A DNA stretch of 64,000 bases from Escherichia coli (GTDB taxonomy: Bacteria; Pseudomonadota; Gammaproteobacteria; Enterobacterales; Enterobacteriaceae), in assembly GCF_036507355.1 (NCBI RefSeq), contig NZ_AP027877.1; one strand, 5' to 3'. Every line of letters begins with the position of its first letter. The first letter of the stretch is position 1. Made by a program: the position numbers and the translations under genes. Below the pieces are notes generated by a model. The model was not told the DNA's origin. It made no database searches and was given only the letters and a program-made list of their open reading frames with translations. Shown here in pieces: positions 3,809 to 9,810 of this stretch.

Positions 3809-5200
3809 ATGCTGGCTTTCTTAAACCAGGTTCGCAAGCCGACCCTGGACCTTCCGCTCGAAGTGCGGCGCAAAATGTGGTTCAAACCGTTCATGCAATC
3901 CTACCTGGTGGTCTTTATCGGCTACCTGACGATGTACCTGATTCGCAAGAACTTTAACATCGCGCAGAACGATATGATTTCGACCTACGGGTTGAGCATG
4001 ACGCAGCTGGGGATGATCGGCCTGGGTTTCTCCATCACTTATGGCGTGGGTAAAACGCTGGTTTCCTACTACGCCGACGGCAAAAACACCAAACAATTCC
4101 TGCCGTTCATGCTTATCCTGTCTGCCATTTGTATGCTGGGCTTCAGTGCCAGTATGGGCAGCGGCTCGGTTAGCCTGTTCCTGATGATTGCCTTCTACGC
4201 CTTAAGCGGCTTTTTCCAGAGCACCGGCGGTTCGTGCAGTTACTCCACCATCACCAAATGGACGCCGCGTCGTAAACGTGGGACGTTCCTCGGTTTCTGG
4301 AACATTTCTCACAACCTTGGCGGTGCAGGCGCGGCAGGTGTGGCGCTGTTTGGGGCAAATTACCTGTTCGATGGTCATGTCATCGGCATGTTTATTTTCC
4401 CGTCGATTATCGCGCTGATTGTCGGTTTTATTGGCCTGCGTTACGGCAGCGACTCCCCGGAATCTTATGGCCTCGGCAAAGCTGAAGAACTGTTCGGCGA
4501 GGAGATCAGCGAAGAGGACAAAGAGACTGAATCTACCGATATGACCAAGTGGCAGATCTTTGTTGAGTATGTGCTGAAAAACAAAGTGATCTGGCTGCTG
4601 TGCTTCGCCAACATTTTCCTCTATGTGGTGCGTATTGGTATCGACCAGTGGTCAACCGTGTACGCGTTCCAGGAACTGAAACTCTCTAAAGCGGTGGCGA
4701 TTCAGGGCTTTACGCTGTTTGAAGCTGGTGCGCTGGTCGGTACGCTGCTGTGGGGCTGGCTCTCTGACCTGGCGAACGGTCGCCGTGGCCTGGTGGCCTG
4801 CATCGCGCTGGCGCTGATTATCGCCACGCTCGGTGTGTATCAACATGCCAGCAACGAATATATCTATCTGGCTTCTCTCTTTGCGTTGGGCTTCCTGGTC
4901 TTTGGCCCGCAATTGTTGATTGGTGTGGCTGCTGTTGGTTTTGTACCTAAAAAAGCGATTGGTGCTGCCGATGGTATTAAAGGCACCTTTGCTTACCTGA
5001 TTGGTGACAGCTTTGCCAAGTTAGGTCTGGGAATGATTGCCGATGGGACGCCGGTATTCGGCCTTACCGGCTGGGCAGGCACCTTCGCCGCGCTGGATAT
5101 CGCCGCGATTGGTTGTATCTGCCTGATGGCGATAGTGGCGGTGATGGAAGAACGCAAAATCCGCCGCGAGAAAAAAATTCAGCAGTTGACAGTGGCATAA
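3809..5200 (+). CDS. uhpT: Hexose-6-phosphate:phosphate antiporter UhpT (MFS)
   Basis: 463-aa [32 protein letters not shown]-terminus. Confidence 0.92.
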
Positions 5201-5247: not shown

Positions 5248-7014
5248 TTATTCCGTGACTTCCAGCGTGGTGAAGGCAAACTTCTCGCCATCAAATAGCC
5301 CCTGACTGGTTAGTTTTAGCGCGGGGATCACTGGCAGAGAAAGAAACGCCATCTGAATAAACGGCTCATCGGGTAACGGACCGCATTCACGGGCGGCGGC
5401 TTTCAAGGCGTCAATTTGTTCCGCCAGCGACTGCGCCGTGTCGGTGCTCATCAGCCCGGCAATGGGCAACGGTAGATGACTTTGTACCTGGCCGTCACGT
5501 ACCACGCACAACCCGCCGCCATCCTGAATCACCTGATTGACCGCCAGCGCCATCTCTTCGGCACTGCGACCGATCACCACAATATTATGGCTGTCATGGC
5601 TGACCGTCGCAGCCAGCGCACCTTCATTCAGGCCAAAGCCGCCGAGCAAACCACAGGCCGGAGCCAGCCGTTGCCCGTAACGCTCAAGTACGGCAATAAA
5701 GCACACATCATCGCGATCAAAACCATTTTCGCTATAGACGCTGGAGCGGGAGTGCGTAATCAATTCGTTATGGATGACGTCAATGACCCGATAGCGTTTT
5801 CCGGGCATGAATTGCAGGGCAAAGTCGCTGGCGGAAACTGGCTGGCGGGCAATGGTATTGCCAAATGGCGGGGCAGACTGCGCCAGTCTCGCCGACTCTT
5901 CCGCCTGTAAGGTTTGCGCGTCAATCGGTTCGCCTTTCACCAGTACCTGCTGCACCGTGACCTTACGCGCATCGCTCAACAGGACGATATCAGCCTGCTT
6001 TCCGGGTGCCAGTAAGCCGAGGTGATTCAGACCAAAGTGGCGCGCCGTCGACCAGCTGGCGACGCGATATGCCACATGCAGCGGCACATTGTGTTGTTCG
6101 ATCAGGCGGCGAATTAGGGCATCGATATGCCCTTCATGGGCGATCTCCCACGGGTTACGGTCATCAGTACAGAGCATGCATTGCGGGCTGTTAAATTCGT
6201 TGATCAACGGTGCCAGTGCGTTGAGATTGCGGGCAGCGGACCCCTCGCGGATCATCAACGACATGCCGAGTTGTAATTTCCGGCGTCCTTCTTCCAGCTG
6301 ATAACTTTCGTGGCAGTTTTCAATACCCGCGGCAATATAGGCGTTAAGTTCTTTACCACCCAAACCCGGGCAGTGACCGTCCAGCGTCAGGTGGCGAAAT
6401 GCATCCAGTTTATCGAGCAGCGCATTCTGCCCGCTAATTACGCCAGGGTAGTCCATCATTTCTGCAAGGCCGGTAACCTGCGGATGGTCCCGCCAGGCGA
6501 GCATCTGTTCAAGGGTAAAACTGGCACCGTTAACATCGCAGCCTTCCAGAGCGGGCACGCAAGAGCTGACCTGTAAGTACTGGTTTTGCCTTGCCTGTTT
6601 GGCACAGCGGGCAAACCAGGCGAATCCGGCTTCGCCCATCACGTTGACGATTTCATGAGGGTCGCAAATAACGGTCGTCAGGCCGCGCGGCAGGGTAGCG
6701 GTTTCAAAAGTGACCGGCGTCATCATGCTGGATTCAATATGCAGGTGAGCATCAATAAACCCTGGCACCGCCGTTGCGCCGCGGGCATCAATCCGCTGCA
6801 AAGCCGGAGCATCAGTGTATTCTGCGCCAACACCGGCAATGTAACGTCCTTTAATCACAATTGGGCCGGAAATTTCTCCGCCATTGATCAGGTCGAGAAT
6901 AGAGACATTATCAATAATATAATCGGCAACAGCGTCGCCACGGGAAACGGCTAACAATTCCTGGTATTCAGCCCGGCTAATGTGATGAAATTTATGGTTA
7001 ATAGAATTATTCAT
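5248..7014 (-). CDS. ade: Adenine deaminase
   Basis: 588-aa ORF with amidohydrolase metal-binding motifs ([12 protein letters not shown]), matches Ade/YicP. Confidence 0.9.
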
Positions 7015-7188
7015 ATTTTTCTCATTTTGATTTTATCAATTTGATTATTATTTATCATAAAGAAACGTCGCGAGATTATTAAAGAATATCCATTAATGTG
7101 CAATTGAAATGTGATAATTATCACTGAACCGTTGTTGTCATTTGTTTTACAAAAGCAAGGGATTAAATCTCCTCCAATGGACAACAAA

Positions 7189-8523
7189 ATGAATAATGAC
7201 AATACCGATTACGTGAGTAATGAATCAGGGACGCTTTCGCGATTATTTAAACTACCTCAGCATGGGACCACCGTCCGCACAGAATTGATTGCGGGGATGA
7301 CCACTTTTTTAACCATGGTGTACATCGTTTTTGTGAATCCACAAATTCTCGGCGCGGCACAAATGGACCCGAAAGTGGTGTTTGTTACCACCTGTTTGAT
7401 TGCCGGTATCGGCAGCATTGCGATGGGGATATTTGCTAACTTACCTGTGGCGCTGGCTCCGGCAATGGGGCTGAACGCCTTCTTTGCCTTCGTGGTCGTG
7501 GGGGCGATGGGTATCTCCTGGCAGACCGGGATGGGCGCGATATTCTGGGGCGCAATTGGGCTATTTTTGCTCACGCTGTTTCGTATCCGGTACTGGATGA
7601 TCTCCAACATTCCATTAAGTTTACGTATTGGTATCACCAGTGGAATCGGATTATTTATTGCCTTAATGGGATTAAAAAACACTGGCGTTATTGTCGCCAA
7701 TAAAGACACCCTGGTGATGATTGGCGATTTAAGCTCTCACGGCGTGTTGTTAGGTATATTAGGTTTTTTTATTATAACCGTATTGTCATCACGTCATTTT
7801 CATGCCGCGGTGCTGGTTTCCATCGTCGTCACTTCCTGCTGCGGATTATTTTTCGGTGATGTTCATTTTAGCGGCGTCTATTCCATTCCGCCTGATATTA
7901 GCGGCGTCATTGGTGAAGTAGATTTGAGCGGCGCGTTAACACTTGAACTCGCCGGTATCATTTTCTCCTTTATGCTGATCAACCTATTTGATTCATCAGG
8001 AACATTAATTGGTGTAACTGATAAAGCTGGCTTAATAGATAGTAACGGTAAATTCCCCAATATGAATAAGGCGCTGTATGTTGATAGCGTCAGTTCGGTG
8101 GCGGGTGCGTTTATCGGCACCTCGTCTGTTACTGCCTATATTGAAAGTACTTCTGGTGTGGCAGTCGGTGGCCGCACGGGGCTGACTGCGGTTGTGGTTG
8201 GCGTTATGTTCCTGTTGGTTATGTTCTTCTCACCGCTGGTGGCGATGGTTCCTCCTTACGCAACCGCTGGAGCGTTAATCTTTGTTGGCGTGCTGATGAC
8301 TTCGAGCCTGGCGCGCGTTAACTGGGATGATTTTACCGAATCGGTGCCTGCGTTTATTACCACGGTGATGATGCCCTTTACTTTCTCGATCACCGAAGGG
8401 ATTGCACTCGGCTTTATGTCGTACTGCATCATGAAAGTGTGCACCGGGCGCTGGCGCGATCTGAACCTGTGTGTGGTGATGGTCGCAGCTCTGTTTGCAC
8501 TCAAGATTATTCTGGTGGATTAG
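7189..8523 (+). CDS. adeQ: Adenine permease AdeQ (NCS2 family)
   Basis: ORF 7111..8523; internal start MNNDNTDYVSNESG gives 444 aa; polytopic NCS2 transporter; divergent from ade. Confidence 0.85.
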   Translation: MNNDNTDYVSNESGTLSRLFKLPQHGTTVRTELIAGMTTFLTMVYIVFVNPQILGAAQMDPKVVFVTTCLIAGIGSIAMGIFANLPVALAPAMGLNAFFAFVVVGAMGISWQTGMGAIFWGAIGLFLLTLFRIRYWMISNIPLSLRIGITSGIGLFIALMGLKNTGVIVANKDTLVMIGDLSSHGVLLGILGFFIITVLSSRHFHAAVLVSIVVTSCCGLFFGDVHFSGVYSIPPDISGVIGEVDLSGALTLELAGIIFSFMLINLFDSSGTLIGVTDKAGLIDSNGKFPNMNKALYVDSVSSVAGAFIGTSSVTAYIESTSGVAVGGRTGLTAVVVGVMFLLVMFFSPLVAMVPPYATAGALIFVGVLMTSSLARVNWDDFTESVPAFITTVMMPFTFSITEGIALGFMSYCIMKVCTGRWRDLNLCVVMVAALFALKIILVD

Positions 8524-9143: not shown

Positions 9144-9467
9144 TTACAGCAGCACCTCCAGCCCGTGTTTTTGCACAATGCTGAGCAGTTTTAATGAAAT
9201 GCCATTGGGGCGTTTAGCGCCACTTTCCCATTTTTGTACAGTTGAAACGCTGGTATTGAGATAGTGAGCGAAGACGGGCTGACTCACTTTTAATTTTTCC
9301 CGCAGTGCTTTTATCTCAACAGGTTGTAAGTCTTGCACGCTGGTCAGGCAGGCTTTGTCAAAAGTACGCATTGTTTCGGCAGAAATAGCATCGACGCTGG
9401 ACAATCCAGCCGCTGCGCTGTGAATAGCCTCAAATGCAGGACTTTTAAATTTAGTTTTTGCAGTCAT
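9144..9467 (-). CDS. HTH XRE-family antitoxin (HigA-like)
   Basis: 107-aa ORF with C-terminal HTH (SQPVFAHYLNTSVSTVQKWESGAKRP), overlaps the upstream toxin ORF by 17 bp. Confidence 0.65.
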   Translation of the reverse strand: MTAKTKFKSPAFEAIHSAAAGLSSVDAISAETMRTFDKACLTSVQDLQPVEIKALREKLKVSQPVFAHYLNTSVSTVQKWESGAKRPNGISLKLLSIVQKHGLEVLL

Positions 9468-9810
9468 AGCAGATCTCTGTCAGTTCTTTAGTGTTAATCA
9501 TTGCTGTTAGTTGGGCTTTCGTCAGGAAGGCATAATGCTTTGCAAGTTCACGAAACCCAGCCAGTTCCTGACTATTGATGTTCGACATATCCTGTTTTGC
9601 ATATAAAAACGTGTAAAACCAATTGCTTCCCCCTTTTGCCAGAATAATTGCACGCTCACGATTTTGGTGAAGGCGCTTTTTAAAAACGCCACCACCAAGT
9701 GCATCAGCTTTACCTTGCTCCGTTTCTAAAATGGCCCGGCACAACTCTTCATCTGTTATTGCATGAGACCTGGCTTCCCTTGCAAACCATTTGGTTTTAA
9801 ACACGCGCAT
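9451..9810 (-). CDS. RelE/ParE-superfamily toxin (HigB-like)
   Basis: 119-aa basic protein MRVFKTKWFAREA..., encoded immediately upstream of and overlapping an HTH antitoxin; toxin-first order typical of HigBA modules. Confidence 0.6.
   Translation of the reverse strand: MRVFKTKWFAREARSHAITDEELCRAILETEQGKADALGGGVFKKRLHQNRERAIILAKGGSNWFYTFLYAKQDMSNINSQELAGFRELAKHYAFLTKAQLTAMINTKELTEICYDCKN

Follow-up and report, generated by a model that had tools for sequence, protein, structure and literature searches.

The cryptic bgl operon of Escherichia coli is kept silent by H-NS, which acts through elements both upstream and downstream, and is activated by insertion of IS1 or IS5. A similar pattern of control has been reported for the adenine deaminase gene ade (also named adeD or yicP), which Petersen et al. 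2002, as cited in PMC2753651 and PMC13274399, reported to be repressed by H-NS and activated by insertion elements, with derepression in an hns mutant of K-12. PMC2753651 attributes the activation of ade by IS insertion to relief of H-NS repression. According to PMC13274399, evolved cocultures in which adenine was available were enriched in IS insertions upstream of adeD, and activation of adeD by insertions in adeQ had been seen earlier. In PMC3809563, read-through activation of yicP was inferred for a kan cassette placed in yicO.

Other reports concern expression of the locus in wild-type strains. In PMC8085971 (2021), adeD and adeQ are listed among newly validated Crp-activated units on the basis of crp deletion RNA-seq and gel shift, and both genes are described as measurably expressed and Crp-dependent in wild-type K-12. 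Because both genes are reported to be Crp-activated in wild-type K-12, the term cryptic applies to ade only in a relative sense. Changes in adeD mRNA are described as detectable in BW25113 in a preprint (bioRxiv 10.1101/2025.05.28.655832), and PMC6958661 reports a PlaR genomic SELEX peak within the adeD-adeQ spacer. Here, the corresponding spacer was analyzed within a 64-kb stretch of E. coli DNA (64,000 nucleotides), which is referred to as the window.

Gene arrangement at the adeD-adeQ locus

The locus consists of two divergent genes and the spacer between them:

5248-7014, minus strand: adeD (ade, yicP), adenine deaminase, 588 aa, intact (NCBIfam match and RefSeq annotation in related genomes)
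7015-7188, no strand: adeD-adeQ divergent spacer, 174 bp, GC 27.6% (composition and K-12 comparison)
7189-8523, plus strand: adeQ (yicO), adenine permease, 444 aa, ATG at 7189 (RefSeq annotation)
7175-7181, plus strand: AATGGA, likely adeQ ribosome-binding region (putative, conserved across genera)

A preliminary description of this DNA had placed a 174-bp spacer between divergent ade and adeQ genes, and the gene identities and open reading frame limits bear this out: exactly 174 bp separate the start codons of adeD, on the minus strand, and adeQ, on the plus strand. The adeD product matched the NCBIfam adenine deaminase equivalog NF007457 from end to end (1262 bits, residues 1-588), and RefSeq labels the pair adeD / adeQ in 19 of the 20 E. 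coli records among the matches listed. Beyond adeD lies uhpT (3809-5200), an arrangement found also in K-12, and both the flanking genes (uhpT and yicN) and the orientation of adeD-adeQ are the same as in K-12 MG1655. The MG1655 spacer is also 174 bp long and is identical to the present one at 173 of 174 positions. With the same length, the same flanking genes and this degree of identity, the claim that the K-12 architecture is kept here was correct. The sole difference in the spacer is at position 7185, four bases before the adeQ ATG, with a C here in place of the K-12 A. Position 7185 is also A in every other genus compared.

An in-frame ATG upstream of the annotated adeQ start, at 7177, was considered as an alternative start and rejected, as it is out of frame in the Citrobacter R56 alignment. 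The translation starts of adeD and adeQ mirror each other, both genes opening with ATGAATAAT (M-N-N), and the arms 7006-7030 and 7173-7197, which cover the two start regions, form a 25-nt inverted repeat with 76% complementarity.

Several features were observed elsewhere in the window. A RelE/ParE-family toxin and a helix-turn-helix antitoxin are encoded at 9144-9804, between yicN and nepI, and are unannotated at that position in K-12. An acquired island, absent from K-12, lies between nepI and yicS at approximately 11.4-27.5 kb and is the source of most other AT-rich stretches in the window. The island carries giant Ig-repeat inverse autotransporter genes with internal repeats (iatC/air-like), eilA, encoding a HilA-family regulator, and genes for a type III secretion translocon, tip and chaperone; these gene names were taken from a related record, L040, which is only partly collinear with the window. 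Finally, AAGCAAACGTTTGCCA at 39124-39139 matches 13 of 16 positions of the PurR operator consensus, in what collinearity with L040 suggests is presumably the xanP-gltS spacer.

Conservation of the spacer and natural insertions

At least 80% of an 801-bp query spanning the locus was present in 5385 E. coli complete genomes. Among the 5392 complete genomes with a matching spacer, identity was at least 99% in 4866 and at least 95% in 5391; the best identity was 99.4%, and none was identical. Outside E. coli, species-representative genomes were scanned with AdeD, with recovery limited by peptide patterns, and the locus was recovered from Escherichia spp., Citrobacter, Cedecea, Kluyvera, Morganella and a Serratia. 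In Escherichia, Citrobacter, Cedecea and Kluyvera, the two genes remain divergent and are separated by a spacer of 172-176 bp and 26-30% GC. By tblastn, 14 of 15 enterobacterial loci have adeQ in divergent orientation to adeD; in loci L012 and L016, adeQ is split into two segments. In at least 99% of complete E. coli genomes, and in three further genera, the silenced architecture is kept with hardly any change. That an intact adeD has been retained over the long term behind an unaltered control region speaks for conditional use of the gene rather than decay.

IS interruptions of the spacer are rare in E. coli. In strain A30, from a horse (NZ_CP092500.1; L003, 4052-5107), an IS5-family element of approximately 1.06 kb lies 51 bp upstream of the adeD ATG and replaces the equivalent of window positions 7066-7465. 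The CRP site described below and the adeQ 5' end are gone in this strain, while the invariant adeD-proximal block and adeD itself are intact. The A30 insertion resembles the IS activations of ade obtained in the laboratory. In strain TBU0218_11-3CC (NZ_AP027721.1; L002, 4144-4920), IS1 replaces the equivalent of 6843-8024, with loss of the adeD 5' end, the entire spacer and most of the 5' half of adeQ, and both genes are pseudogenes.

AT content and H-NS-related sequence properties

The spacer had been described as very AT-rich with A/T tracts, and its composition confirms this. The GC content of the spacer is 27.6%, compared with 49.9% for the 64-kb window, and only 0.47% of 174-bp segments across the whole 64 kb have a GC content as low. 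In the spacer, A/T runs of 5 or more bases occur twelve times, the longest spanning 12 bases (7044-7055), and the homopolymers comprise four T4-T5 runs and one A4 run. The lowest-GC 174-bp stretch in the 64 kb (23.6%, at 6978-7151) overlaps the spacer and is lower than any stretch of the acquired island elsewhere in the window. The low-GC tract extends past 7015-7188 into both genes: 174-bp segments at 30% GC or less cover 6937-7214, which includes approximately 80 bp of adeD and 25 bp of adeQ. Within adeD, GC3 is 0.38 in codons 1-40 versus 0.61 in the remaining gene, and the whole-gene GC content is 54.9% for adeD and 48.0% for adeQ.

A similar picture was obtained with the closely related, annotated record L040. 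There, the adeD-adeQ spacer has a GC content of 27.0%, the lowest of any annotated spacer that is 100 bp or longer (35-54% in the rest). Only two spacers in L040, both shorter than 60 bp and within the eip island, are comparably AT-rich, and its other core-genome divergent spacers have 36-42% GC.

The preliminary description had also classed the spacer as the kind of sequence bound by H-NS. The AT content is in keeping with this; the nucleation motif was near chance in frequency, and phased A-tracts were not above chance. A-tract phasing in the spacer was not significant (AA/TT periodicity at 10-11 bp, P = 0.44-0.83), and the TpA frequency of the spacer was unremarkable, falling only in the top 14% of segments. 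Predicted curvature was modest (top 2-10%) and confined to the adeD side, in an exploratory wedge model. The H-NS nucleation 10-mer, a TCGATAAATT-like motif, had one 8/10 match in the spacer (7030-7039) and a second in the adeD 5' coding region (6989-6998); window-wide, 86 matches were observed versus 67 ± 8.6 expected, which is near chance. Thus, the only H-NS-relevant sequence property demonstrated here is AT content.

That ade is cryptic and silenced by H-NS in K-12, as stated in the preliminary description, is supported by published genetics (Petersen 2002, through the papers that cite it). Since those genetics were done in K-12 and the two spacers are identical at 173 of 174 positions, the H-NS reading is supported for the present sequence as well, on the strength of the literature.

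A conserved CRP site between candidate adeQ and adeD promoters

The only sequence-specific element that stands out in the spacer is a CRP site:

7107-7128, no strand: AAATGTGATAATTATCACTGAA, CRP (cAMP receptor protein) site (consensus match and conservation)

This conserved site in the middle of the spacer was omitted from the preliminary description, which is incomplete in this respect. The near-consensus core of the site, TGTGATAATTATCACT, lies at 7110-7125 and is centered at 7117.5. The distance from this center to the start codon is 71.5 bp for adeQ and 103.5 bp for adeD. The site agrees with TGTGA-N6-TCACA at 9 of 10 core positions; a match of this quality has a chance of P ~0.014 in the shuffled spacer, and approximately 2 are expected in 64 kb.

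In an alignment of 8 species from 4 genera, the half-sites TGTGAT and ATCACTGAA were 98% conserved, while the central 4 bp were variable (57% conserved), reading AATT, TGCA, AACT or TGTA. The half-sites are invariant in 6 of the 7 other species compared, spanning Escherichia, Citrobacter, Cedecea and Kluyvera; the exception is the E. albertii type strain, which carries the half-site change TGTtA. Fixed half-sites around a free center are the signature of a site for a dimeric factor. We infer from these sequence features that 7107-7128 is probably the site behind the published Crp binding.

A second CRP-like site (7136-7151, 8/10) is unconserved outside Escherichia and was treated as a chance match. 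In Citrobacter and Kluyvera (L009-L016), the sequence TTGCAA, which is similar to a CytR half-site, stands immediately next to the CRP site; in E. coli, TGCAATTG at 7099-7106 lies a few bases further out.

Candidate promoter elements were found on both sides of the CRP site:

7148-7153, plus strand: TACAAA, candidate adeQ -10 hexamer (putative, from the conserved TTTA[CA]AA core)
7030-7038, minus strand: TGaTAAAAT, candidate adeD extended -10 (promoter scan; "-35" ATGATA, 17-nt spacer, TAAAAT with TG)
7054-7082, minus strand: alternative adeD promoter candidate, -35 TTAATA (7082-7077) and -10 TATGAT (7059-7054) (promoter scan)

On the adeQ side, the distance between the CRP site and the TTTA[CA]AA core is fixed in all genera, with no indels, and the counterpart of the -10 hexamer reads TAAAAA, TAAAAG or TAAATG in other genera. 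This hexamer would place the adeQ transcription start near 7159-7160 and CRP at -41.5/-42.5, a class II position. No sigma-70-like promoter passed the promoter scan on the plus strand for adeQ, which fits an activator-dependent adeQ promoter. In total, the scan returned 4 sites, not a significant excess over the expected 2.3 ± 1.5.

On the adeD side, the extended -10 is invariant in all 8 species and would place the adeD start near 7023, with CRP near -94.5. The TTAATA-17-TATGAT candidate, which is conserved across genera only in part, would place the start near 7047 and CRP near -70.5. Each of these two CRP positions is 1-2 bp off canonical spacings, and the class I and class II assignments at both genes are geometric, being counted from putative starts.

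Proposed control by H-NS silencing and CRP activation

Collectively, these data suggest, with a probability of roughly 0.8, that the spacer is a shared control region of adeD and adeQ that operates at two levels, H-NS silencing and CRP activation. On the basis of the literature and of inference, the tract 6937-7214, which takes in the 5' end of adeD together with its core promoter and the entire spacer, would be the substrate of H-NS. Nucleation and spreading of H-NS on this tract would hold adeD transcription too low for a phenotype, hence the designation cryptic, and an IS in the spacer or in the adeQ 5' end would break the H-NS nucleoprotein structure and turn adeD on. At 6937-7214 the tract is short for an H-NS filament, a point against the silencing part of the model. 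Activation would be exerted through the single CRP site at 7117.5, between the two promoters. At adeQ, CRP bound there would be a class II activator. With respect to adeD, the site is on the upstream side of the promoter (about -70 or -94), where CRP would serve as a class I activator, a counter-silencer or both. High cAMP would be predicted to result in a rise of both adeD and adeQ.

An alternative reading is that the AT-richness is the ordinary composition of back-to-back promoters and that regulation is essentially by CRP-cAMP, with no meaningful role for H-NS in the present strain. Published genetics, as relayed by the citing papers, argue against this reading, in that they tie the crypticity of ade to H-NS on a sequence identical at 173 of 174 positions. 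Ordinary promoter composition is likewise hard to reconcile with a GC content of 27.6%, compared with 36-42% in the other core-genome divergent spacers of L040. What speaks for it is that the CRP site alone stands out, both statistically and by conservation, while the H-NS motif, A-tract phasing and curvature were not above chance. The expression and Crp dependence of adeD and adeQ in wild-type K-12 (PMC8085971) point the same way, as do the adeD mRNA changes detectable in BW25113 (bioRxiv 10.1101/2025.05.28.655832). However, the repeated selection of IS insertions upstream of adeD when adenine is available is more readily explained by relief of silencing than by the loss of an activator site. 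Regulation by CRP without H-NS is thus considered unlikely, and the combination of H-NS silencing and CRP activation is retained as the preferred reading.

Invariant blocks near and within adeD

Conservation at the locus is concentrated in the following elements, in addition to the CRP site:

7015-7058, minus strand: nearly invariant adeD-proximal block, 44 bp (8-species alignment)
7017-7044, no strand: tandem 14-nt direct repeat TTTTCTCATTTTGA / TTTTATCAATTTGA (repeat search: 86% identity, spacing 14)
6905-6924, minus strand: invariant AT-rich 20-mer inside adeD, sense GATTATATTATTGATAATGT (adeD nt +91 to +110, codons D-Y-I-I-D-N-V)

The 44-bp block has a mean identity of 93% across 8 species, compared with 81% and 76% for the adeD and adeQ coding flanks, and holds the adeD translation initiation region and the candidate core promoter. 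The repeat region contains the palindrome TTGAT-N3-ATCAA (7027-7039). Within adeD, the 20-mer is the longest run that is invariant in the 8 species, the next longest being 8 nt. Six consecutive synonymous positions in it are invariant, and its third-position identity is 0.98, versus an adeD mean of 0.55. The 20-mer was found in 13 of 13 other taxa with an AT-rich spacer; Morganella retains 17 of 20 positions, and the element is lost in Serratia. The 8-mer TTATCAAT is common to the 20-mer and the block (7033-7040) and occurs 9 times in the window versus 2.4 expected.

The adeD 5' RNA folded no better than shuffled sequences (z = -0.17), and an mRNA structure pairing the adeD start region with the 20-mer (7006-7015 with 6909-6918) was not supported by this result. 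A search of 6700-7500 on both strands against Rfam gave no match at E of 1 or less, including to the purine riboswitch. Scans of the locus for operator consensus sequences gave no match for Fur (12/19), PurR (10/16), PlaR (10/15) or FNR (8/10), and a scan for the IHF consensus gave no convincing site. An FNR site at the palindrome 7027-7039 (8/10) was rejected because its spacing is wrong.

The 44-bp block and the 20-mer may together form a silencer like that of bgl, one half each, or may be bound by an undescribed factor; their role in the control proposed above is putative. Stated in full, this would be a bipartite adeD silencer in which the block and the 20-mer, approximately 125 bp apart, serve either as H-NS nucleation sites bridging the promoter or as operators of an undescribed regulator, and we regard it as a tentative and rather doubtful proposal. 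If it is true, the six frozen synonymous sites would indicate that the cryptic state itself is maintained and regulated and does not reflect decay. The two invariant blocks, one of them within coding sequence, are precise targets for studying how ade silencing is built.

A related alternative takes the block and the 20-mer as operators of a specific regulator, for example an adenine-responsive one, that would be the main gate of adeD in place of generic H-NS binding. The identity of the block, at 93% over four genera, exceeds that of the coding flanks, but its conservation would be expected in any case from the adeD ribosome-binding region and the candidate extended -10 that it holds. The 20-mer also counts in favor: it does not vary at six synonymous sites in a row, which sets it well apart from the rest of adeD, and it co-occurs with the AT-rich spacer; the presence of TTATCAAT in both elements and the tandem 14-nt repeat also favor specific recognition. 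As for candidate regulators, the reported PlaR genomic SELEX peak in the spacer (PMC6958661) would fit, but non-specific SELEX peaks are frequent on AT-rich spacers, the consensus sequences of Fur, PlaR, PurR and FNR are unmatched, and no such regulator was found in the searchable literature. A dedicated regulator as the main gate of adeD is therefore judged improbable, and silencing by H-NS combined with activation by CRP remains the preferred reading.

The remaining possibility, that the AT-rich spacer marks horizontally acquired DNA and that its silencing is xenogeneic, draws on the low GC typical of foreign DNA, on the location of the window's other AT-rich stretches in the acquired island and on the recovery of adeD-adeQ from some enterobacterial genera only (in a search limited by peptide patterns), but it is highly improbable. 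The base composition of the genes on either side largely refutes it, the AT-richness being confined to the spacer and the gene 5' ends (adeD 54.9% and adeQ 48.0% GC). The uhpT/yicN synteny is as in K-12, 5391 of the 5392 E. coli genomes with a match show a spacer identity of 95% or more, and the spacer is common to Citrobacter, Cedecea and Kluyvera.

Comparison with known systems

The region is real, ordinary and already known: it is reported to be H-NS-silenced, IS-activatable and Crp-dependent, and nothing found here departs from published knowledge. Its significance beyond annotation is small, ade being a textbook-style example of an H-NS-silenced, IS-activatable gene. What is added is that the published Crp binding can be tied, by a putative assignment, to one specific site conserved across genera.

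Like bgl, ade encodes a catabolic function that is phenotypically cryptic; its regulatory region is AT-rich, its promoter region contains a CRP site, and IS insertion is reported to activate it (PMC2753651). The likeness would extend to a candidate downstream element within the adeD coding region, the 20-mer at +91 to +110. Unlike that of bgl, the control region of ade is compact, bidirectional and also serves a transporter gene, and no antiterminator layer is evident at ade, where Rfam finds nothing.

The locus also resembles divergent gene pairs that share one CRP site. As in such pairs, there is one near-consensus site, both genes are reported to be Crp-activated, and the distance to the candidate adeQ -10 fits a class II position, a geometry that depends on the putative start. 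In contrast to such pairs, the adeD-adeQ site lies in unusually AT-rich DNA, where CRP may also counter H-NS.

The closest described system is the K-12 ade promoter region itself (Petersen, Moller & Valentin-Hansen 2002), which is the same locus with the same spacer length, flanks and orientation and with 173 of 174 bases in common. The present region differs from it by the one base at 7185 and by the strain background, in which a toxin-antitoxin pair and the eip island lie nearby.
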